NCBI GenBank assembly: GCA_023267215.1 | Contig: JAHFNS010000002.1 | Coordinates: forward strand, 128,892-192,891 | Origin: Candidatus Nomurabacteria bacterium | Lineage (GTDB): Bacteria; Patescibacteriota; Minisyncoccia; Phycocordibacterales; UBA9973 | Direction: 5' to 3' | DNA: 64,000 nt | Shown: positions 1,386 through 54,767 of the stretch, one piece after another | How the letters are laid out: every line of letters begins with the position of its first letter | How positions within the stretch are numbered: position 1 is the stretch's first letter | Program-made: the position numbers and the translations under genes | Notes under the pieces: model-generated | The model's input: the letters and a program-made list of their open reading frames with translations, nothing else | Databases searched by the model: none | What the model was told of the DNA's origin: nothing

Positions 1386-1805
1386 TTACAGCATTCTTAC
1401 GTCAATATCAACTCCCGAAGGAAGAGAAAGATTAGTAAGTGCTTCAACTGTTTTTCCATTTGGATTTATAATGTCAATCAATCTCTTATGTACTCTTATT
1501 TCAAATTGTTCTCGAGTGTTTTTGTAAATAAAAGATGCACGGTTAACTGTATATTTTTTAATTTCTGTTGGTAATGGAATTGGTCCAATAATAATTGCGT
1601 CATAACGCATGGCTGTATCTATAATTTGTTTAACTGACGCATCCAATATCTTGCTCTCGTAAGCACGAACTCTGATACGTAAAACCACTTTTCCCTCTTC
1701 TTTTTTTGCTCCAATTGTAGAGCGAACTTTTTTAGGAGAAGTTTTTCTAGGCTTTTTCTCAATTAAAACTTTTGGTTTTTTTATTTTTAATTCTTTGGTT
1801 GCCAT
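1386..1805 (-). CDS. rpsJ: 30S ribosomal protein S10 with lysine-rich N-terminal extension
   Basis: C-terminal 100 aa match S10 (LRIRVRAYE...IDIINPNGKTVEAL...LPSGVDIDV); preceded by a roughly 40-aa K-rich extension. An internal GTG near 1690 could be an alternative start. Confidence 0.85.
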   Translation of the reverse strand: MATKELKIKKPKVLIEKKPRKTSPKKVRSTIGAKKEEGKVVLRIRVRAYESKILDASVKQIIDTAMRYDAIIIGPIPLPTEIKKYTVNRASFIYKNTREQFEIRVHKRLIDIINPNGKTVEALTNLSLPSGVDIDVRML

Positions 1806-1811
1806 GGCATA

Positions 1812-3005
1812 TTAACCCAATATTTTTGTGACCACTCCTGCACCTACTGTTTTACCTCCTTCGCGAATAGCAAATCTCTGCGCTTCTTCAAGGGCAACTG
1901 GAGTAACTAATTTAACTGTGATCTTTACTGTATCTCCAGGCATAACCATTTCTACTCCTTCAGCGAGAGTTACATCTCCAGTAACATCTGTCGTACGAAT
2001 ATAGAATTGAGGTTTGTAACCTTTAAAGAATGGGGTGTGACGTCCACCTTCCTCTTTTTTCAAAACATAAATCTCACAAGTAAAATTATCATGTGGAGTA
2101 ACTGTACCTGGCTTTGCAAGGACCTGTCCACGAGTAATATCTTCTTTCTTTAATCCACGAAGCAATACTCCGGCATTGTCTCCAGCCATACCTTCTTGTA
2201 AGTTTTTGTTAAACATTTCAATACCAGTAACGGTTGTTTTTTGAGTAGGTTTAATTCCAACAATTTCTACTTCCTCACCAACCTTTACTACTCCTCTTTC
2301 TATTTTACCAGTAACAACTGTTCCACGGCCTTCGATTGAAAATATATCTTCAACAGGCATAAGGAAAGGTTTGGTAACATCTCTTACTGGAATAGGAATA
2401 TAAGTATCAAGAGCATCGGTTAATTCAAGAATTTTCTTTGCCCATTCATCGTTCAAATCTTTTGCTTCAAGAGCTTTCAAGGCAGAACCTCGAATGATAG
2501 GTGCATTTACACCATCAAAGCCTTGTTTAGTTAGAAGTTCACGAATTTCTTCTTCCACTAAATCAAGCATATCTTTATCATCAACCATATCGCATTTGTT
2601 TAAGAAAACGATCATTTTTGGAACACCAACTTGTTTTGCAAGAAGAACGTGTTCACGGGTTTGTGGCATAGCACCATCTGTAGCGGCAACCACCAAAATA
2701 GCACCGTCCATCTGAGCGGCACCTGTAATCATGTTTTTAATGTAGTCAGCGTGACCTGGAGCATCAATGTGCGCATAGTGACGAGCGTCAGTAGCATATT
2801 CATTGTGTGAAATGTTAATAGTGATTCCACGAGCTTTTTCTTCTGGGGCATTGTCGATTTGGTCAACACCACGAAGTCTGACTGTTTTACCAGCCATATT
2901 AAGCACATGCAAAATTGCCGCAGTTAAGGTTGTCTTACCATGGTCAACGTGACCAATGGTGCCGACGTTAATATGCGGTTTATCTCTTTTAAATTCTTCT
3001 GCCAT
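1812..3005 (-). CDS. tuf: Elongation factor Tu
   Basis: 397 aa with [23 protein letters not shown]-motifs and full EF-Tu domain II/III similarity. Confidence 0.95.
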
Positions 3006-3118
3006 AATATTTTTTTAATAATGAGAACTCAGTGTACGAGAACCAGTCACTAAGGCCTTATTACTAACTTGTCCGCCTCTGGCGGGCTTAATTAAACTAA
3101 TAATTTTAATGCTTTTAT

Positions 3119-3151
3119 AAAAAAACCAACAGAAAAACTGCAAAAGTGCAG
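3119..3151 (-). terminator. Rho-independent terminator downstream of pyrF
   Basis: Hairpin CTGCAAAAGTGCAG (3138..3151); on the minus strand it is followed by a T-rich run (A-run 3119..3137 on +). Confidence 0.5.
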
Positions 3152-3190
3152 TTGTTAGTATAGTAGCAAATTGATAAAAAATGTCAAATC

Positions 3191-4000
3191 TTATGACAGT
3201 GCCCTATATTTTTTAATTTCTTCAAAAAGTTTTCTAGCTTCCTCTTTTGGATTATCTGCAAAAATGATACCCCTAGAAGAATTTATTATTAATCCTAATC
3301 CTTCTTTATTTAATCCTGATTCAATGACTGATTTAACATCCCCTCCTTGTGCCCCTATCCCCGGAACAAGGAAAGTCATATCAGGGACGAATGAGCGAAT
3401 CTTTTTCATTTCTTCTGGATAAGTCGCCCCAACCACTAACATACAATTATTATTTTTATTCCAAATATTTGAAACTTTTTCCGCCACAATTTGCCAAAGT
3501 TTTTTATCTTCAATTTCTAAATCTTGGAATTCTCCTGCTCCAGAATTTGAGGTCCTACAGAGAATTATAGAAGTTTTATCTTTTCTATCTAAAAAAGGTT
3601 TCAGAGCTTCCTCCCCTAAATACGGATGCAAAGTTATCGCATCAAAATTTAACCAATCAAAAGCCATATACACATAGCCATTATTAGTATTACCAATGTC
3701 CGCACGTTTCGCATCTAGGATAGTAAAAATATCTGGATATTTTTGTTGTAAATATTCCATAGTCATTTTTAACTCTTTTAGGCCTTGGTCTCCTCTAGCT
3801 TCGTAAAAAGCAATATTTGGTTTATAAGCAGCCACATATTCATTTGTTTCTTCTATAATATATTTATTAAATTCAAATTGTGGAAATTCTAATTTTAAAA
3901 ATCTTTCAGGAATTTTAGAAAAATCTGCGTCTAAACCTACGCATAAAAGTGAATTAATTTTCTTTGCTCTTTCGTTGTATTTTTCTAAACTATTCATCAT
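3191..4000 (-). CDS. pyrF: Orotidine 5'-phosphate decarboxylase (long/type 2 form)
   Basis: LCVGLDAD, DAKRADIGNT and VPGIGAQGG motifs; last gene of the pyr operon. Confidence 0.85.
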   Translation of the reverse strand: MMNSLEKYNERAKKINSLLCVGLDADFSKIPERFLKLEFPQFEFNKYIIEETNEYVAAYKPNIAFYEARGDQGLKELKMTMEYLQQKYPDIFTILDAKRADIGNTNNGYVYMAFDWLNFDAITLHPYLGEEALKPFLDRKDKTSIILCRTSNSGAGEFQDLEIEDKKLWQIVAEKVSNIWNKNNNCMLVVGATYPEEMKKIRSFVPDMTFLVPGIGAQGGDVKSVIESGLNKEGLGLIINSSRGIIFADNPKEEARKLFEEIKKYRALS

Positions 4001-4004
4001 AAAT

Positions 4005-4676
4005 TTACCTCACCCCTTTGCCCCTCTCCTTATTAAGGAGAGGGGTTGGGGAGAGGTTCTTCTCTATTAAATACTTTTTTCCATGACCAACAGTAATATT
4101 TATCGGCACACCTGCTTTACACAAAGGACAATCCTCGGCAGAATATGTCGGTATGTAAAGATCAGAAAGTGCCCCAAAAGGCACTTTAAAAATATCTATA
4201 TCCAAATCTTTATTTTTATTTACCAAAGCACAAGCTCCAATAATGTTTCCACCAGCATTTTTTACCGCTTCTATAACTTTCAAAACAGACCCACCAGTAG
4301 TGACAATATCTTCAACTATCAAAATATTTTTATTATCTTCTACATATTTTTCATATCCACGAGTAAAAATTTGTTTACCCTCAAGACTTTTTTCAGTATA
4401 TATTCCTAAAACTTCCTTACCATACATTTCACTTAAATGCCCTGCGACATATTGAGAAAGAATAATTCCACCCAAAGCAGGACCCACAACCACTTCAATA
4501 TTTTTATCTTTATATTTTTCTGCTAATATTTTACATATTTCAGAAGTTTCTTTTGTATGTGGATATAAAAAATCTTTATTTACATAAGTGTCAAAATGTA
4601 ATCCTGAAGTACCCACAAAATGCCCCTTCGGTAATATCGCTCCAACTTTATTTAAAATATCAAGAATTTCATTCAT
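4005..4676 (-). CDS. pyrE: Orotate phosphoribosyltransferase
   Basis: PRTase PRPP-binding motif ILIVEDIVTTGGS. The C-terminal 17 aa are encoded by a palindromic repeat element (see repeat copy A). Confidence 0.85.
   Translation of the reverse strand: MNEILDILNKVGAILPKGHFVGTSGLHFDTYVNKDFLYPHTKETSEICKILAEKYKDKNIEVVVGPALGGIILSQYVAGHLSEMYGKEVLGIYTEKSLEGKQIFTRGYEKYVEDNKNILIVEDIVTTGGSVLKVIEAVKNAGGNIIGACALVNKNKDLDIDIFKVPFGALSDLYIPTYSAEDCPLCKAGVPINITVGHGKKYLIEKNLSPTPLLNKERGKGVR
4007..4058. repeat. Palindromic repeat element copy A (CCTCACCCC box + CCCCTCTCCTT/AAGGAGAGGGG hairpin)
   Basis: ACCTCACCCCTTTGCCCCTCTCCTTATTAAGGAGAGGGGTTGGGGAGAGG. It overlaps the pyrE 3' coding end and supplies a GGTGAGG SD-like sequence 8 nt before the pyrF ATG. 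Confidence 0.7.
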
Positions 4677-23899: not shown

Positions 23900-24424
23900 A
23901 TGATTCTATCTATAATAGCTGCCATTGGTAAAAATAATGAGATAGGAAAAAAGAATGAGCTTCTTTGGAATTTACCTGCGGATATGAAACATTTTAAAGA
24001 AGCAACCTCAGGCCACACAGTTATAATGGGACAAAAGACTTTTGAATCCATTGGCCATCCTCTTCCAAATAGAAGAAACATTGTTTTAACTCAAGATAAT
24101 TTATTTCAAAGAGAAGGAATAGAAATAGTCCACTCTCTAGAAGAACTTGATGCTTTGCTTAAGACCTCACCCCAACTCTCTCCAGGAAAGGAAGAAAAAG
24201 ATGAGGAGGTTTTTGTAATTGGAGGTGGACAAATATATAAATTATTTATAGATAAAGCAGATAAACTTTACATCACTCACGTCAATGCATCTTTCCCTGA
24301 CGCTGACGCATTTTTCCCAGAAATTATTCCAATAGTCTTTCTAGAAACTTCTAGAGAAGAACATAAAAAAGACGAAAAAAACGCATATGACTATGCGTTT
24401 ACTACATATACTAGATTTCAATAA
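23900..24424 (+). CDS. folA: Dihydrofolate reductase
   Basis: ILSIIAAIGKNNEIGKKNELLWNLPADMKHFKEATSGHTVIMGQKTFESIG N-terminal DHFR signature. Contains an in-frame degenerate repeat copy (24164..24200). Confidence 0.8.
   Translation: MILSIIAAIGKNNEIGKKNELLWNLPADMKHFKEATSGHTVIMGQKTFESIGHPLPNRRNIVLTQDNLFQREGIEIVHSLEELDALLKTSPQLSPGKEEKDEEVFVIGGGQIYKLFIDKADKLYITHVNASFPDADAFFPEIIPIVFLETSREEHKKDEKNAYDYAFTTYTRFQ
24164..24200. repeat. Degenerate palindromic repeat copy E inside folA (in frame)
   Basis: ACCTCACCCCAACTCTCTCCAGGAAAGGAAG encodes TSPQLSPGKEEK. The same frame and peptide theme as the RluA insert (TSPPSSPSKGEG). Confidence 0.4.
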
Positions 24425-32900: not shown

Positions 32901-33473
32901 CTCTCGAAGCACAAGGATAGAACCATCATTATTTAATTTGATTAGTTTGGAAGCTTTTGCTTCAATCTCCCCTCCGTCTATATAAAGATCCACTTTCTCA
33001 CCAAAGTATTTTTTCGCTTCTTCAATATTTTTAGCCGGAGGCAACGCCTCCGTATTTGCAGAAGGAGCAATAAGTGGGCCAGTTTTTAAAAGAAGATTTC
33101 TAAGTGATTTGGGAAAAGGCAATCTGAAAGCAAAAGGATCCAAAACAACACTTACTGGACCTGGCCAATAATTTTCTAAAATTTTCTTTTTTTCTTCTGA
33201 TAAAATAATTTCAAATTTTTCGAGTTCTTTAATATCCCCAATCAAAATAATACACGGTTTATTTGAATTTCTTTTTTTTATTTCATAAATCCTTTCTACT
33301 GTATTTTCTTCCAAAGCTTTCCCCACTATTCCATAAATAGTATCCGTCGGCATGACAACCACTCCATCTTTTTTTAATACTTTTATCAAATTTTGATTAT
33401 TCCAAATATTTTCTTGCATATTATTTAAATTTAAAATTCCTATGACCATTATCTTTGCTAGAAATTTGAACAA
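32898..33473 (-). CDS. tsaC: L-threonylcarbamoyladenylate synthase (YrdC/Sua5 family)
   Basis: VVMPTDTIYGIVG motif and YrdC fold length; overlaps the tsaE 3' end. Confidence 0.75.
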   Translation of the reverse strand: MFKFLAKIMVIGILNLNNMQENIWNNQNLIKVLKKDGVVVMPTDTIYGIVGKALEENTVERIYEIKKRNSNKPCIILIGDIKELEKFEIILSEEKKKILENYWPGPVSVVLDPFAFRLPFPKSLRNLLLKTGPLIAPSANTEALPPAKNIEEAKKYFGEKVDLYIDGGEIEAKASKLIKLNNDGSILVLRE

Positions 33474-33888
33474 ATTTAGAATGTTTCGGCATAGCCTTTG
33501 AAATATTTTCTGGCCATTCGATAAAAACTAAATGCTCGTCGTTACCTATAATTTCTTCCCAACCTAAATGTAATAATTCCTTTTCACTTTCTAGACGATA
33601 CGCATCTATGTGAAAGAAAAATTTATAATTAGACCCCCTCGCCCTTTGGGCACTCCCCCGACGCCTCGCGAGAGAGTACTTTTTCATAATGACATAAGTC
33701 GGGCTAAAGACTCTCTCTTTTATTCCCAGATGTTTAGTAACTAATTTTGTGAAAGCTGTTTTGCCAGCACCTAAGTCTCCAGAAAGACCAACAACCAAAG
33801 CACCTTTGTGCTTTTTCTTGCCTTTCAATATCTTATCCAAAAATGTTTTCGCAATCTTTTCAGTTTCTTTTATATTTTTTGAAAGCAT
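33421..33888 (-). CDS. tsaE: tRNA t6A biosynthesis ATPase TsaE (YjeE)
   Basis: LSGDLGAGKT Walker A, SPTY and HIDAYRL motifs. Contains an in-frame GC-rich insert (33633..33680). Confidence 0.7.
   Translation of the reverse strand: MLSKNIKETEKIAKTFLDKILKGKKKHKGALVVGLSGDLGAGKTAFTKLVTKHLGIKERVFSPTYVIMKKYSLARRRGSAQRARGSNYKFFFHIDAYRLESEKELLHLGWEEIIGNDEHLVFIEWPENISKAMPKHSKFVQISSKDNGHRNFKFK
33633..33680. repeat. GC-rich palindromic in-frame insert within tsaE
   Basis: ACCCCCTCGCCCTTTGGGCACTCCCCCGACGCCTCGCGAGAGAGTAC encodes SLARRRGSAQRARGSNYK between the conserved SPTY and HIDAYRL blocks; contains the CTCGCGAG palindrome. Confidence 0.45.
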
Positions 33889-38007: not shown

Positions 38008-38409
38008 TTATTTTTCTGTTTTTTCCACTTCTACCTCCTCGTCAGCAACTGAGACAACAGAACGTAATTTTCGGCGGACATCTTTTACTGCTTTAACTCG
38101 TACATAATATAGTTTTGATTTACGAGCTCGAGATTTCTTAGTTATTTCAATTTTATCAACAGCTGGAGAATAAAGTGGAAAGATTCTTTCTACGCCTACA
38201 CCTGAAGCTATTCTGCGAACGGTGAAAGTCGCACCGATTTCTGTACCATGTTTGCGAGCAAGAACGATACCTTCAAAAGCCTGCAGACGTGTCTTCCCTT
38301 TTTCATCTAAGACTTTGGACCAAACACGAATAGTATCTCCTGAATTGAAATCAAGCTTCCCTCTGTCTTCAACATTTACTGAAGTAAGTTTTGTTTTATC
38401 TATTTTCAT
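38008..38409 (-). CDS. rplS: 50S ribosomal protein L19 with C-terminal extension
   Basis: SGDTIRV...RLQAFEGIV...GVERIFPLYSP core. The ORF track extends to a TTG at 38448, but the MKIDKTK Met at 38409 fits the L19 N-terminus. Confidence 0.85.
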   Translation of the reverse strand: MKIDKTKLTSVNVEDRGKLDFNSGDTIRVWSKVLDEKGKTRLQAFEGIVLARKHGTEIGATFTVRRIASGVGVERIFPLYSPAVDKIEITKKSRARKSKLYYVRVKAVKDVRRKLRSVVSVADEEVEVEKTEK

Positions 38410-38452
38410 AACAGTTTTTAATCTAACATAAACCAATTCTAAAGGCAAATTA

Positions 38453-38496
38453 ACTCACCTCACCCCTAAGCCCCTCTCCTTGTAAAGTAGAGGGGT
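38453..38496. repeat. Palindromic repeat element copy B (intergenic)
   Basis: ACTCACCTCACCCCTAAGCCCCTCTCCTTGTAAAGTAGAGGGGT. Confidence 0.65.
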
Positions 38497-38504
38497 ATTA
38501 AAGA

Positions 38505-40208
38505 CTAGGCAAATTCCTGTTGATAGCATTTCACACAATAAACTATCTCTGGTCCATCTGGGGCATAAGGTGTATAAATGTTTATATTACATTTTGCACA
38601 GGTTCTATGATACATTTTAGGTTTTGTCATTCTCTCAAATCTTTCATTTTCTCTGCATTTAGGACATTCATGTGGGACTGGTAAATTCATCTTACGAAGT
38701 AAATCTAATTCTCCTTTTACTATTTTGTATCCATTTTTACATTTTTCACATTCAATTATCTCATCCAAAACTTTTTCATCTATATCTTTTATTGTATCTG
38801 GCAAAGAATCTGTTTTCTTTGTAGTTTTATAAATTGTGCCTTCTCTGTCTTCCCAAAAATAACCCTCTTCTAAAACTTCTCCCTTTGTTTTTGGAAAAAA
38901 TTTAATTGCATTTGATTTATTGTATGGGAACTTACTAAATTCCGGTGGAAAAAATTCTCCATAGTAAAATTTCCGTCCAAGCTTGTCTATGTATGGATTC
39001 TTTTTCATATCTTCAATAATTTTATCTCTGAGTTTTTCATATTCCTCTTTTGTATACTCTTTATTTAAAATACAGTATTTTTTTCTTTTTAAATTTACAC
39101 AACCAAAATTATTTTTACCAGTGATATTCCATGAACAGTATTGCAAATCCAAACTCTCTGACCAACAATAATTGGAGAATAATATTAGATTGGTGCCCTC
39201 TCCTACTCCCGTACTTTCATAAATTTGGCTTACATTGTTTCCCCAACCAGAATAATCCCAGCAATCTTTAGCTGACGGGACAGTAATAAATTGAGTCCAT
39301 TTACAATCTTCGGCACCACCAACCATATAAACTTCCTTTGAATTTTTAGAACTGTAAACATCTTCACCTGTCACATTTAAATTTTTTGAGTTTCCATTAT
39401 ACTCTCTATATGGCAAGGTATTCCAAAACTCATGTACTTTCTCTTTAAGAGACTGTAACGACATCCAAGAATCAAGTTTCAACTCTTTGACTTTTTCTTG
39501 ATATTCTTCTTTTGTGTACTTAATATTAAAAATATAATAAGAAGCACCTCGCAGATTTACACATCCAATACAATTAGTGCAACTTGAACAATTGCGAGAA
39601 AACCATACATTCACACAATCACGACATTCATATGAGAAAAAAGTTTGATAACTTTTATTAACCCCAACACATTCATAACATAATTCTGAATAAAACCCTC
39701 GTAAACAATCTAAACTCGATTTTAGATTATTTAATAATGAGGAATAGTAGACATTCTCACAATAATCTGCCCAAAAAGTTAAATAGCAATCTTTAGACCA
39801 CCCTATACCATTAGAATATTCGGAATTCTTTATAGTTAAATGATCTGCTTCAAGAAGAGCAAAAGGAGTTTTATCAAAAAGTTTTTTTAATTGTTCTAAA
39901 AAGGGTTTGCTTGGATCATAATCCATTGCGTATTCTGTCCCATCCCAACTATCTCCCCACCAACAAGTCGGGCAATAACCTATCACTTCTTTATCTGGTG
40001 GATAAACAGAAACAGATCTAGCTCCACATTTATCACAATTGCGCCAATATAGATTCCAAGTATTCTGAAAAGAGATACGTCTAATAAATCGACATTCCGG
40101 ACACCAAGTCGGAGGAGGCACCTTCATTTTTTCATAAAAATTAAAATCCTCCGGCTCAATTGTGAAGTCTTGCTTACAGTTCTGGCAATTTCTAACTTCA
40201 GTTTGCAT
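38505..40208 (-). CDS. Cysteine-rich protein with multiple CxxC zinc-ribbon-like motifs and an internal duplicated module
   Basis: 567 aa. There are 4 CxxC pairs at each terminus and two internal repeats ending ..C.NL(R/K)...Y.I.N..YTKEEY(Q/E)K. Function unknown. Confidence 0.5.
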   Translation of the reverse strand: MQTEVRNCQNCKQDFTIEPEDFNFYEKMKVPPPTWCPECRFIRRISFQNTWNLYWRNCDKCGARSVSVYPPDKEVIGYCPTCWWGDSWDGTEYAMDYDPSKPFLEQLKKLFDKTPFALLEADHLTIKNSEYSNGIGWSKDCYLTFWADYCENVYYSSLLNNLKSSLDCLRGFYSELCYECVGVNKSYQTFFSYECRDCVNVWFSRNCSSCTNCIGCVNLRGASYYIFNIKYTKEEYQEKVKELKLDSWMSLQSLKEKVHEFWNTLPYREYNGNSKNLNVTGEDVYSSKNSKEVYMVGGAEDCKWTQFITVPSAKDCWDYSGWGNNVSQIYESTGVGEGTNLILFSNYCWSESLDLQYCSWNITGKNNFGCVNLKRKKYCILNKEYTKEEYEKLRDKIIEDMKKNPYIDKLGRKFYYGEFFPPEFSKFPYNKSNAIKFFPKTKGEVLEEGYFWEDREGTIYKTTKKTDSLPDTIKDIDEKVLDEIIECEKCKNGYKIVKGELDLLRKMNLPVPHECPKCRENERFERMTKPKMYHRTCAKCNINIYTPYAPDGPEIVYCVKCYQQEFA

Positions 40209-40212
40209 AGTA

Positions 40213-40965
40213 TTATTTTAACACCTCTATAAACTCTTTGGGTAGTGGTGATTCAACTTTTATTATTTTTCCTTTCAAATCTTTAAAGACAATAGATTTA
40301 GCATGTAGGGCCAATCTATCTATACCTTTAGGAGAGGGGTGCCCTCCATTATAAAGTGAATCACAAACTACTGGATGATTTATAAATTTCATATGCACTC
40401 GAATCTGATGTGTACGACCCGTTTTCGGACGCACTTCTAAATAAGTAAATTTAGCCCCCTCTCCTTTAGAAGGAGAGGACGGGGGTGAGGTAAATCTTTT
40501 CAAAACAGTATATTCAGTGATAGCTTCTCGAAGTTCCCCTCTCGCCCCACGTCCTGCTAACCTTTTACGAAAATCATTTCCACTTCGTCCAATTGGTTTT
40601 CTTATAGTTCCTCTATCATTTTTCATAGAACCTAAAACAATTGCATTATAAACTTTTTTTATTTCTCTTCCTTTAAATTGTTCTTTCAAAAATTCATAAG
40701 CTTTTTGATTCTTTGCTAAAAGTAAAACACCAGAAGTATCTTTATCTAGGCGATGTACTATACCTGGACGAGGAAGAAGCTCAAAAAATTTATCGTCATT
40801 TTTTATCTTAATTGGTTCTCCAACATTTTTTGTTTTAGGATAATTTTTTAAAAACCAATCAGAAATTGTTTTTTCTTTACTTCTACCATCTGGATGCACC
40901 GAAACACCAGAGGGTTTATCTATGGCTAAAATATTCGAATCTTCATAAAGTATTTTAATTTTCAT
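40213..40965 (-). CDS. RluA-family pseudouridine synthase carrying an in-frame repeat insertion
   Basis: NILAIDKPSGVSVHP and HRLDKDTSGVLLLAKN catalytic motifs; TGRTHQIRVH. A 14-aa TSPPSSPSKGEGAK segment is encoded by repeat copy D. Confidence 0.8.
   Translation of the reverse strand: MKIKILYEDSNILAIDKPSGVSVHPDGRSKEKTISDWFLKNYPKTKNVGEPIKIKNDDKFFELLPRPGIVHRLDKDTSGVLLLAKNQKAYEFLKEQFKGREIKKVYNAIVLGSMKNDRGTIRKPIGRSGNDFRKRLAGRGARGELREAITEYTVLKRFTSPPSSPSKGEGAKFTYLEVRPKTGRTHQIRVHMKFINHPVVCDSLYNGGHPSPKGIDRLALHAKSIVFKDLKGKIIKVESPLPKEFIEVLK
40453..40494. repeat. Palindromic repeat element copy D (reverse orientation, in frame inside the RluA-family gene)
   Basis: GCCCCCTCTCCTTTAGAAGGAGAGGACGGGGGTGAGGTAAAT is the reverse complement of the family consensus. 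Confidence 0.65.
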
Positions 40966-41705
40966 ATAATTAATTCTTTAAGTCTTTCCATCCAACCTAA
41001 AATCGTAAGAAATAATTTGGTATCATTAACTGACACATCTAATGTACCATATGGTAAAGTATTTCTCTTGTTTTTACTAGCGTTGCTTCTTTTTATATAT
41101 GTTTTATAAAATTGATTTATTGGAATCTGTGATACTTCAGACCAATATTTTTCAGAATTTTTCACATTGGTTTGAGAAAATGTATGTATATGACCACGAA
41201 ATTTTTCTTCTGGGACCAAACATATTTCTCTAAAAAATTTCATTATAATTTTAATTATATCTGGGTCGCTGTTTGTAAGACGTGCAATTCCTCTTTTTGT
41301 TTTTCCTCCTTCACCTAAATATAGAGCAATCCCTATCATTTTTAAGTCATTTTGAGAGATATTACTAATTTCTTTTTTAGCACCATTAATAATGAGATCA
41401 CTTCTCTTTTTTGTATTTGCAATTCGACTTACTCTTCTTTTTTCAATAGAGTTTACACTACGTCCATTCTGAGATAACAAACTTTTTTGTTTTTCATTTA
41501 GAACAACATCTCGTACCCATAAACTTACACTTGCTTTTGATACATTAAGAACATTTTTTATTTCATTTATAGATTTTCCTTGTCTACGTAAAATTATAGC
41601 TCTCCTTTTTTCATTAACTTTCATATATAGAGTATACCGTATGTATAGTATTATATCAAGGTTTAATAAAGAAACTATTGAAATAAACCCGAAAATACTA
41701 TACAC
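40962..41705 (-). CDS. Putative HTH plus LAGLIDADG-like endonuclease
   Basis: N-terminal HTH (RRQGKSINEIKNVLNVSKASVSLWVRDV); central MIGIALYLGEGG...DPDIIKIIMKFF resembles a single LAGLIDADG motif. Flanked by tRNA-Val and tRNA-Arg. Confidence 0.45.
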   Translation of the reverse strand: MYSIFGFISIVSLLNLDIILYIRYTLYMKVNEKRRAIILRRQGKSINEIKNVLNVSKASVSLWVRDVVLNEKQKSLLSQNGRSVNSIEKRRVSRIANTKKRSDLIINGAKKEISNISQNDLKMIGIALYLGEGGKTKRGIARLTNSDPDIIKIIMKFFREICLVPEEKFRGHIHTFSQTNVKNSEKYWSEVSQIPINQFYKTYIKRSNASKNKRNTLPYGTLDVSVNDTKLFLTILGWMERLKELII

Positions 41706-43645: not shown

Positions 43646-43670
43646 TTTTTAATTAAAAAACATTATTTAA

Positions 43671-43708
43671 AATACCCAGCTACTAGCGAGTAGCTGGGTA
43701 TTTTATTT
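43671..43708 (+). terminator. Rho-independent terminator (14-bp stem)
   Basis: AATACCCAGCTACT-AGCG-AGTAGCTGGGTATT followed by TTATTTTA. Confidence 0.6.
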
Positions 43709-54279: not shown

Positions 54280-54726
54280 ATGAATAAAAATAAAAAAATT
54301 ATTTTTGGAGTAATAGGAGTTGTAATTTTAGCAGGAGTATTTTATGGAGGAATGATTTATGGAAAAAACCAAACTTCCACAGGAGGAATTAACGCAAATA
54401 TGCAAAATCGTGTAGGACAATTTGGTGCTGGTAATAGAAATAATAGAACAACAGGAGGAGGATTTGTCTCTGGAGAAATTATTTCAAAAGATGATAAAAG
54501 TATCACAGTTAAAATTATGAATAATGATCCATCAGCAACTAATACAAATACTGGATCAAAAATTATTTTCTTTGATACGAGTACAACAATCTCAAAAATG
54601 GCTGCTGGGTCTTTAAATGATTTGGTAGCAGGCACACAAGTTTCAATCACAGGATCTGCAAATACTGACGGTAGTGTGACGGCAAAAACTATCCAAATAA
54701 GGCCACAGACAAAACTCAATAAATAA
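54280..54726 (+). CDS. Secreted/membrane-anchored hypothetical protein
   Basis: 148 aa with an N-terminal TM/signal and a Gly/Asn-rich low-complexity segment. Confidence 0.45.
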   Translation: MNKNKKIIFGVIGVVILAGVFYGGMIYGKNQTSTGGINANMQNRVGQFGAGNRNNRTTGGGFVSGEIISKDDKSITVKIMNNDPSATNTNTGSKIIFFDTSTTISKMAAGSLNDLVAGTQVSITGSANTDGSVTAKTIQIRPQTKLNK

Positions 54727-54728
54727 AT

Positions 54729-54767
54729 TCACCTCACCCCTACCCCTCTCCTTAATAAGGAGAGGGG
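54729..54767. repeat. Palindromic repeat element copy C (intergenic)
   Basis: TCACCTCACCCCTACCCCTCTCCTTAATAAGGAGAGGGG, immediately after the 54280 gene stop. Confidence 0.65.

Follow-up and report, generated by a model that had tools for sequence, protein, structure and literature searches.

We analysed a 64,000-nt stretch of a Candidatus Nomurabacteria genome (assembly GCA_023267215.1, contig JAHFNS010000002.1, positions 128,892 to 192,891; hereafter the window, which is the part of the source genome covered here) and found that its gene for an RluA-family pseudouridine synthase contains, in frame, a 38-nt palindromic repeat, copy D, with the architecture of the BoxC repeats of Escherichia coli, also known as potential intrastrand triplex (PIT) and TM elements. 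It is very probable that copy D is a repeat of this architecture which became fixed in frame in a permissive surface loop that recurrently takes inserts, and that what persists is the DNA element and not the peptide. The comparisons below show the insertion, the repeat family, conservation at the DNA level, rapid turnover of the loop, maintenance of the reading frame and a location at a hairpin turn in predicted models.

The RluA-family gene and its in-frame insert

The host gene codes for a RluD-like protein comprising the catalytic domain only (Table 1). Besides the PF00849 domain it has the catalytic Asp in HRLD, the KTGRxHQIR motif and a RluD-like fold: the solved relatives found in a PDB sequence search were, best first, RluD (1prz, E = 2e−28), RluC and RluA, and the top Foldseek match of the predicted model was RluD (2ist, E = 4e−19, TM 0.70). 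In an alignment of 70 sequences the columns of the catalytic motifs HRLD(K)DTSG and KTGRTHQIRVH do not vary, with H71, R72, L73, D74 and P180–H191 unchanged throughout. The open reading frame (ORF) reads ...REAITEYTVLKRF-TSPPSSPSKGEGA-KFTYLEVRPKTGRTHQIRVH..., and the copy D segment lies between the conserved EYTVLKRF and KFTYLEVRPKTGRTHQIRVH blocks. A first-pass annotation of this DNA had placed an in-frame insert between these blocks, and the ORF is indeed open through the segment with the catalytic motifs intact. On the coding (minus) strand copy D reads ACCTCACCCC-CGT-CCTCTCCTT-CTA-AAGGAGAGG-GGGC. The repeat described earlier is real but its coordinates were offset by 3 nt, or one codon, as 40453–40494 encodes FTSPPSSPSKGEGA and the peptide that was quoted, TSPPSSPSKGEGAK, corresponds to 40450–40491. 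The reverse orientation ascribed to it stands, because the other three copies in the window (A, B and C) are on the plus strand.

Copy D was recognised as an insertion by comparison with proteins which lack it. E. coli RluD aligns with a 12-residue gap exactly opposite the copy D segment, and the closest orthologue (P0002, from the locus L003 of a Nomurabacteria genome) has ENKKI in its place. At the DNA level L003 reads AAAAGATTT-GAAAATAAAAAAAT-TAAATTT where the window has AAAAGATTT, the 38-nt element and TAAATTT; 14 nt are replaced by 38 nt and 5 codons by 13, a net gain of 8 residues rather than the 14-amino-acid indel first proposed. The immediate flanks are identical over 9 nt to the left and 21 nt to the right, with 10 differences in 60 nt and 10 in 74 nt respectively over longer distances, and L003 is syntenic with the window, the order being RluA, a 578-aa zinc-finger protein and L19. 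A short loop of 2–7 residues (e.g. EDKNNK) was also found in 77 of 120 homologues, this set being the 120 best matches, all from Patescibacteria/Paceibacteria and with 64–78% identity to the window protein.

Short GC-rich palindromes can confuse assemblers and the window comes from a metagenome-assembled genome, so a chimeric join or repeat-induced mis-assembly might have put the repeat in the gene. The probability of such an assembly or binning artefact is negligible: the identical 250-aa protein is carried by four contigs of separate source (NCBI, ENA and two separate Logan runs), which excludes an artefact of assembly, the frame and both flanks are intact, and the same arrangement is present in six other metagenomic loci.

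We predicted structures of the protein with and without the insert using AlphaFold2. Models of the window protein (mean pLDDT 86.0, pTM 0.82) and of P0002 (mean pLDDT 86.2, pTM 0.83) contain the same two strands, at residues 149–159 and 172–179 in the former and 141–155 and 158–167 in the latter, which are joined by the insert (residues 161–170, average pLDDT 76) in the window protein and by a turn of 2 residues in P0002. In these models the copy D segment is the turn of a β-hairpin on the surface and the predicted fold is unchanged, in agreement with the surface loop suggested in the first-pass annotation. The first strand comes after a low-confidence, disordered basic loop and the second leads into KTGRTHQIRVH. 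As the strand ends adjoin active-site elements, the tip of the hairpin would lie distal to the catalytic cleft, so that the enzyme should tolerate the insert.

Identity of the repeat

Earlier work on BoxC and PIT reportedly includes Bergler 1992 and Hoyne and Maher 2000. BoxC was rediscovered as PIT and later as TM or TMECO, with the consensus CCCTCNCCC-N3-6-GGGNGAGGG-N3-GGGNGAGGG and 3610 copies in 262 proteobacterial genomes; cyanobacteria are rich in G/C-rich triplex motifs, TMECO being one pattern (Holder et al. 2015, PMC4666352). In E. coli K-12, TMECO is reported to be always intergenic; it forms a triplex in vitro and is associated with local genomic instability, without a link to known mobile elements, and neither promoter nor terminator activity was seen for PIT/TM elements in E. 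coli (PMC4666352).

Copy D has the same three blocks as these repeats, namely CCCTCNCCC, followed by its hairpin-forming complement and by a purine block that is a mirror repeat, and the block sequences are near-identical (CCTCACCCC / CCCTCTCC / GGAGAGGG). Its plus strand reads CCTCTCC(TT)-TAG-(AA)GGAGAGG-AC-GGGGGTGAGG, in which GGGGGTGAGG repeats the GGAGAGG arm in mirror image and could serve as the third strand if an intrastrand triplex forms; the GGTGAGG of this block, read backwards, is GGAGAGG save for one T opposite A. Copies A–C have the same layout. The window repeats also resemble BoxC/PIT/TM in being 35–50 nt long, dispersed and multi-copy, in having palindromic double forms (copy A) and in being tied to local sequence turnover. 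We know of no transposase associated with BoxC/PIT/TM. Multiplicity in the window is above chance, with four occurrences of CCTCTCC-N7-GGAGAGG at ≤ 2 mismatches versus 0.06 expected from shuffles and seven of the tag ACCTCACCCC at ≤ 1 mismatch versus 1.07 expected.

We scanned one genome per GTDB species with the window-derived pattern CCTCACCCC-N2-7-CCTCTCC-N5-9-GGAGAGG. At least 120 stretches, spread over most bacterial phyla, matched it, where we estimate that chance would give roughly a few at most. Hosts among the matches listed include Proteobacteria (Pseudomonas, Xanthomonas, Enterobacter, Klebsiella, Acinetobacter, Alpha- and Betaproteobacteria) as well as Chloroflexota, Planctomycetota, Cyanobacteria, Acidobacteriota, Bacteroidota, Verrucomicrobiota, Bifidobacterium, Omnitrophota and a Nomurabacterium. 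The strict TMECO consensus was matched 82 times in 59 of the 120 loci listed from other phyla and once more beside E. coli fabI. Copies A and C, together with the RluA copies of L133, L162, L165, L169 and L174, fit a relaxed consensus (≤ 1 mismatch per block, second loop of 1–6 nt). As the fit is to the relaxed consensus only, and is worse for copy D, the window family is, in terms of its sequence, an AT-extended, degenerate variant of the BoxC/PIT/TM architecture.

This variant differs from the described repeats in three respects. Its stem is AT-extended (CCTCTCCTT/AAGGAGAGG). Its copies are not confined to intergenic DNA as in E. coli: copy D is inside the RluA-family ORF, copy A covers the 3′ end of an ORF and so a gene's C-terminus, and a relic lies in a dihydrofolate reductase (DHFR) gene, with copies B and C being intergenic. 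Finally, the host is a Patescibacteria genome of 33% GC, whereas the 2015 paper names Proteobacteria and Cyanobacteria (PMC4666352).

Conservation of the DNA rather than the peptide

The TM-type element of the RluD-like loop, which we call T1, was compared in six orthologous loci (the window, L133, L162, L165, L174 and the decayed L191), in all of which it occupies the same codon, orientation and frame. Where the amino acid was the same, third codon positions were identical in a proportion of 0.92 inside the element compared with 0.53 in 80 flanking codons, and the conserved codons are GC-rich in a genome of 33% GC. In a Dus gene of Ca. Nomurabacteria RIFCSPLOWO2_01_FULL_39_18 (L090, 5258–5292) a TM element lies in frame directly after GNPWLF (TSPPTPLLDKERGAKGEVRS), and the Pfam Dus domain spans it; the T1 DNA starts there in the same frame (TSP...) but the linker length shifts the frame of the hairpin, giving PLLDKERG in place of PSPYKGEG. 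Judging from these codon comparisons, the persisting unit is the DNA element and not a useful peptide.

An alternative is that the segment represents a lineage-specific loop of old date, inherited vertically and kept by selection on the protein, for instance as a peptide for docking or linking, with the resemblance to a repeat being secondary. It is true that TSPxPSPYKGEG recurs in several orthologues and that the frame is always kept. However, the third-position identity and GC-rich codons described above do not fit protein-level selection, the nearest relatives have no such segment, the same DNA occurs in intergenic gaps of the window and in another hairpin frame in the Dus gene, and unrelated sequences occupy the same loop in sister lineages. 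We regard this reading as highly improbable and already largely refuted. It should be noted that the first-pass annotation had held that the same segment in orthologues from unrelated taxa would speak against an insertion, and other Paceibacteria orthologues do carry TSPxPSPYKGEG. The insertion reading is nevertheless kept: the carriers are scattered in the tree and resemble the window protein less than insert-free orthologues do, and synonymous sites are conserved, which argues for recurrent gain or allele transfer and not for an ancestral loop.

The RluD-like loop as an insertion hot spot

An insert is present at the same loop in 43 of the 120 homologous proteins and, by hand count, in ~36 of 80 orthologous metagenomic loci, so that ~36–45% of Paceibacteria orthologues have some loop insert; these belong to at least five element families and occur in both orientations. 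T1 itself accounts for ~8% of homologues, always at the same position and in the same orientation and frame. The other groups are TM-like variants with the arrangement CCCTCCCCC-tag-CCCCCTCCCTT-atc-AAGGAGGGGG, TM-like motifs in inverted pairs (type 3), a palindrome of ~95 nt with the core TTTTTCCTCCTGCGCCCTTCCCCGAGTACGGGGTGGGACCCTCGGAGATAAAAA and compensatory substitutions in its stems (type 2), and further long palindromes (L145, L196). The frame is kept through the insert in every one of the 82 orthologous loci. The state of the loop differs between close relatives: P0035 (type 3) and P0080 (without insert) are 96.9% identical outside the loop, P0102 (with) and P0095 (without) 96.5%, P0009 (with) and P0006 (without) 96.0%, and P0116 (type 2), from the same clade as P0035, is 92% identical to P0080. 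Comparison of these sequences shows the loop to be a recurrent insertion hot spot which appears to have been hit or overwritten by several element families.

Type 2 was found in the RluA genes of L126, L129, L136, L138, L140, L144, L153, L161, L164, L168, L173, L184, L190, L195 and L202, always in frame and with the invariant core ..CCTGCGCCCTTCC..GAGTAC..GGGACCCTCG... It is reversed in L140, L153 and L168 and occupies a second site in the same gene in L129 and L136. Of its 31 stem pairs, 20 are changed on both sides. The pair L126/L207 gives a hint that the outer arms were copied from host flanks, which the pair L209/L208 does not. No type 2 element was found outside RluA genes in 822 kb of loci, ~130 kb of which come from type-2 carrier genomes, and the palindrome has no Rfam family. 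Searching the type-2 peptide against 1.84 billion representatives, one per 50% cluster, returned a truncated RluA (P0121) and three translated CRISPR arrays. The latter (P0122–P0124) are three-frame translations (YPRVRGGT / SPRARGN / IPACAGEP) which match the palindrome peptide by chance. A word-index protein search with the element peptides returned nothing; as its positive control, a near-identical peptide in P0042, failed too, this result was not used.

Conservation of nucleotide sequence and hairpin beyond the needs of the peptide could also mean that the insert is kept for a role in RNA or DNA, such as a site of translational pausing or of Shine-Dalgarno type (AAGGAGAGG), a hairpin that stabilises the mRNA, or a signal for recombination or replication. 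The stable hairpin of copy D (−10.1 kcal/mol, z = −3.25) and the compensatory changes by which the unrelated ~95-nt palindromes keep their stems (20/31 pairs) are in line with this. We think such a role unlikely. Among orthologues 64% have no insert at all, unrelated sequences in both orientations occupy the loop, the copy in the DHFR gene has decayed, and no Rfam family was matched by the inserts of seven insert-bearing loci, which returned only tRNAs and sub-threshold miRNA-like hairpins. Template switching within quasi-palindromes can, moreover, keep stems paired without selection. The lack of promoter and terminator activity of PIT/TM elements in E. coli also counts against it (PMC4666352).

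The distribution of T1 bears on how it reached the window gene. T1 is absent from the 12 proteins nearest to the window protein (80–86% identity); the T1 carriers are only 73–78% identical to it and are scattered in a neighbour-joining tree which was built without the loop (226 columns, no bootstrap support). The gene may have received an insert-bearing patch from another Paceibacteria lineage by homologous recombination, that is by allele transfer or homing-like gene conversion, with no de novo insertion. In keeping with this, T1 sits at an identical position, orientation and frame in homologues which are not clustered in the tree, and the highly conserved flanks VLKRF and KFTYLEVRPKTGRTHQIRVH could support recombination. 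Between L132, which has a type 3 insert, and L206, whose RluA proteins are 97% identical, mismatches are concentrated within ~50 nt of the insert on both sides (14/60 to the left and 18/40 to the right, with 0 from −168 to −51), and this co-conversion-like cluster suggests replacement of a patch by recombination and hence that insert-bearing segments may move between lineages. The window gene itself, however, has immediate flanks identical to those of the insert-free L003 and no raised divergence near the insert (10/60 and 10/74), and its nearest relatives, at ~78% amino-acid identity, are too divergent for a tract to be visible. We consider this route possible but less likely than not; it concerns only how the element arrived and is compatible with copy D being a BoxC/PIT/TM-type repeat fixed in a permissive loop.

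A 247-aa ORF (window 40962–41705, minus strand) overlaps the start of the RluA-family gene by 4 nt. Homologues adjoin RluA only sporadically, in 9 of the ~85 related loci searched, and five of these nine have a loop insert. A homing endonuclease function for this ORF was not supported by Pfam and PDB sequence searches, which returned only a weak HTH_23 match (E = 0.04) and no PDB match.

In-frame copies in other genes

Two further genes of the window contain related DNA in frame (Table 1). The copy in the DHFR gene (KTSPQLSPGKEEKDE) has the reading frame of copy D and an intact tag; it has lost the hairpin and drifted to AT-rich codons, and solved DHFRs have an 11-residue gap at this position. 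The GC island in the TsaE gene corresponds to a 14-residue gap in the Thermotoga maritima TsaE 6n9a_E and shares 27 nt (GGGGGAGTGCCCAAAGGGCGAGGGGGT) with the type-3 RluA insert of L132, where these are read in another frame (..GECPKGEGV). Beyond the Candidate Phyla Radiation (CPR), solo TMs are spanned by Pfam domains in a Polaromonas YgiQ and a Chloroflexota PMT_2 protein, and one TM lies in a linker of an acidobacterial IcmF.

Proposed insertion mechanism and the DUF559 association

We propose that a copy of the repeat became fixed in the stretch coding for the β-hairpin turn of the RluD-like gene, expanding ~5 loop codons to 13. The insert keeps the frame, brings no stop codon and would be translated as a Pro/Ser/Gly-rich surface loop, and we infer that the segment is translated and roughly neutral. 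Insertion probably took place by repair or recombination at a hairpin- or triplex-prone site, or by mobilisation in trans, and at least some spread may be by homologous replacement of a gene patch. In dense, AT-rich CPR genomes, selection against disruption would leave copies only in intergenic gaps and permissive loops.

Several points weigh against this account of copy D. With regard to the mechanism, alignment of copy D with the empty site of L003 revealed no target-site duplication, and the window yielded neither a transposase nor a DUF559 gene; comparison of the flanks of copies A–D also gave no common direct repeat. With regard to identity, neither the window nor 822 kb of Paceibacteria loci contain a strict TMECO match, and copy D is a degenerate fit (1+2+1 mismatches and a second loop of 1 nt). 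"Triplex" denotes a sequence architecture only, as even in E. coli no triplex was detected in vivo (PMC4666352). The placing of the hairpin tip away from the cleft is an argument from the topology of the model. Lastly, one old insertion followed by many losses could, formally, still give the observed distribution of T1.

An HMM search gave a lead as to how such repeats might move. Four genes for DUF559 (PF04480, a Vsr-like endonuclease, E about 1e−33) were found among the 120 TM loci listed, and all four are directly flanked by TMs. In three cases an inverted TM pair surrounds the gene: L016 899–1468 (Acinetobacter), L019 2111–2649 (a betaproteobacterium) and L044 5548–6025 (Beijerinckiaceae); the fourth gene is L005 6128–6774 (Gemmataceae). 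In the uncultured betaproteobacterium of L019 the whole TM-DUF559-TM cassette is in frame within the methionyl-tRNA synthetase (MetRS) ORF (1777–4515, minus strand), between the anticodon-binding and C-terminal tRNA_bind domains. In E. coli K-12 the DUF559 gene examined, ycjD (L205 5203–5761), carries a TM-like hairpin that overlies its stop codon; ~165 nt from this stop, the spacer between ycjD and fabI contains a strict TMECO. BoxC is said to have been first described beside envM (= fabI). We found no paper linking DUF559 or ycjD with BoxC in the literature searched.

This adjacency in five genomes makes DUF559 a possible mobility partner of BoxC/TM repeats. A further-reaching alternative is that BoxC/TM repeats represent either the inverted-repeat ends of a selfish DUF559 (Vsr-like PD-(D/E)XK) element or its non-autonomous derivatives, that this element spreads by nicking or cleavage followed by gene conversion, and that such derivatives and other palindromes home into permissive loops in dense CPR genomes, the RluD-like loop being a recurrent homing site exchanged between lineages. 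We put this forward as a rather doubtful, speculative proposal. If true, it would provide a mobility mechanism for the 30-year-old BoxC/PIT repeats and define a pan-bacterial class of in-frame protein-coding palindromes.

Comparison with known systems

The first-pass annotation had likened the insert to the Rickettsia palindromic elements (RPEs) and called it an analogous phenomenon in a different lineage. The RPE-like, in-frame insertion of a palindromic repeat is borne out by the 12-residue gap in RluD, by ENKKI in the closest orthologue and by three intergenic or gene-end copies in the window; the lineage part needs amendment, as the element is not lineage-specific but fits the pan-bacterial BoxC/PIT/TM motif. 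RPEs are ~100–150 bp long, comprise ten families and are Rickettsia-specific (Ogata et al. 2000, 2002, as summarised in PMC10969869). Both are dispersed palindromes without an encoded transposase which lie in frame in housekeeping genes unrelated to one another, in a genome that is small, dense and AT-rich, with the ORF preserved and the insert on the protein surface in a manner compatible with the fold; in the window this applies to the RluA-family gene and also to DHFR and TsaE. In contrast to RPEs, the window element is 38–51 nt long and pan-bacterial, and its DNA is read in a frame that varies from gene to gene, where each RPE family encodes a conserved peptide. To our knowledge, repeated occupation of one loop by several families in both orientations is no described feature of RPEs. 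Set apart by its length (38 nt versus ~150 bp) and its non-Rickettsia host, the element is, on this comparison, no member of an RPE family, and the relationship would be one of analogy only.

REP/BIME repeats (repetitive extragenic palindromes and bacterial interspersed mosaic elements) are likewise short (20–40 nt), GC-rich, imperfect palindromes with an end tag and high copy number, are mostly extragenic, and are mobilised by RAYTs (REP-associated tyrosine transposases), which are IS200/IS605-like Y1 transposases. They are species-specific, whereas the window tag ACCTCACCCC is conserved across phyla. We rejected this assignment because all copies have ACCTCACCCC instead of the REP tag GTAG or CGTC (PMC3733652). 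No RAYT was seen among the part of the window proteins that was scanned. MITEs, or miniature inverted-repeat transposable elements, are small non-autonomous repeats which can land in coding sequence and be translated, as with the in-frame fusions of intragenic ERIC, Correia and cyanobacterial MITEs (PMC10969869). The window element differs in having no insertion-sequence terminal inverted repeats and in being much shorter than typical MITEs, and a classical MITE was rejected for want of a target-site duplication at copy D. Homing endonucleases and inteins offer another parallel in the fixed point in a highly conserved gene, the patchy distribution, the co-conversion-like tract of L132/L206 and the cassette in the MetRS gene of L019; copy D differs in having no encoded enzyme and no splicing motifs. 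We know of no endonuclease which cuts the empty RluA site.

BoxC/PIT/TM repeats have been enigmatic since the 1990s, reported as intergenic and unexplained in their function and spread. The copies in RluD-like, DHFR and TsaE genes of one window, and elsewhere in the Nomurabacterium Dus, Polaromonas YgiQ, Chloroflexota PMT_2 and Acidobacteriota IcmF linker, indicate that protein-coding palindromes are no peculiarity of Rickettsia. The RluD-like loop, whose state differs at 92–97% identity, is a natural system for the gain and loss of elements, the absorption of selfish DNA by proteins and a test of the DUF559 link as a candidate means of mobility. Such loop inserts also inflate the apparent protein novelty of CPR genomes and can mislead alignments and annotation.

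Other copies of the repeat in the window

The positions of all copies are listed in Table 1. Copy A has the sequence ACCTCACCCC-TTTG-CCCCTCTCCTT-ATT-AAGGAGAGGGG-TT-GGGGAGAGGT. On the minus strand it forms the last 17 codons (NLSPTPLLNKERGKGVR) and the stop of a phosphoribosyltransferase-like ORF (4005..4676, minus strand), and it ends 7 nt short of the start of the next gene (3191..4000). The junction of L003 which is syntenic to that of copy B measures 7 nt (gene end 12486, next start 12494) and has no element. Copy C has a perfect 12-bp stem followed by TTTTG. A role of the repeat as a terminator was rejected, as a T-run follows copy C alone and PIT elements lack terminator activity in E. 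coli (PMC4666352).

Table 1 Repeat copies, related inserts and the RluA-family host gene in the window (positions within the 64,000-nt stretch).
Feature	Position	Strand	Details
Copy A, full nested palindrome (tag-hairpin-inverted tag)	4007..4057	+	hairpin −19.3 kcal/mol, z = −6.1; fits relaxed TM pattern
Decayed copy, in frame in DHFR gene (23900..24424, +)	24164..24196	+	ACCTCACCCCAACTCTCTCCAGGAAAGGAAGAA = TSPQLSPGKEE; no fold, z = +1.3
Related 48-nt GC island, in frame in TsaE gene (33421..33888, −)	33632..33679	−	encodes SLARRRGSAQRARGS
Copy B, intergenic, in 56-nt gap between ORFs 38008..38448 and 38505..40208	38457..38496	+	one stem mismatch
RluA-family (RluD-like, catalytic domain only) pseudouridine synthase gene, insert host	40213..40965	−	250 aa; Pfam PF00849 (PseudoU_synth_2), E = 2e−31
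Copy D, BoxC/TM-type repeat, 38 nt, in frame	40454..40491	−	encodes TSPPSSPSKGEG(A); hairpin −10.1 kcal/mol, z = −3.25; aligned against empty site of L003
Copy D hairpin	40458..40478	.	arms CCTCTCCTT (40458–40466) and AAGGAGAGG (40470–40478), loop TAG
Copy D third block, purine-rich GGGGGTGAGG	40481..40490	+	coding-strand equivalent is the ACCTCACCCC tag; read from sequence; TMECO-consensus architecture (PMC4666352)
Copy C, intergenic, just past stop of ORF 54280..54726	54731..54767	+	hairpin −13.0 kcal/mol, z = −5.6; fits relaxed TM pattern

The window also contains a strong palindrome at 12–53, with 19-nt arms (CCCTAAGCTGGGCTTAGGG / CCTTAAGCCCAGCTTAGGG), and a perfect palindrome at 43668–43705, with 17-nt arms (TAAAATACCCAGCTACT / AGTAGCTGGGTATTTTA), both having a CCCAGC/GCTGGG core.

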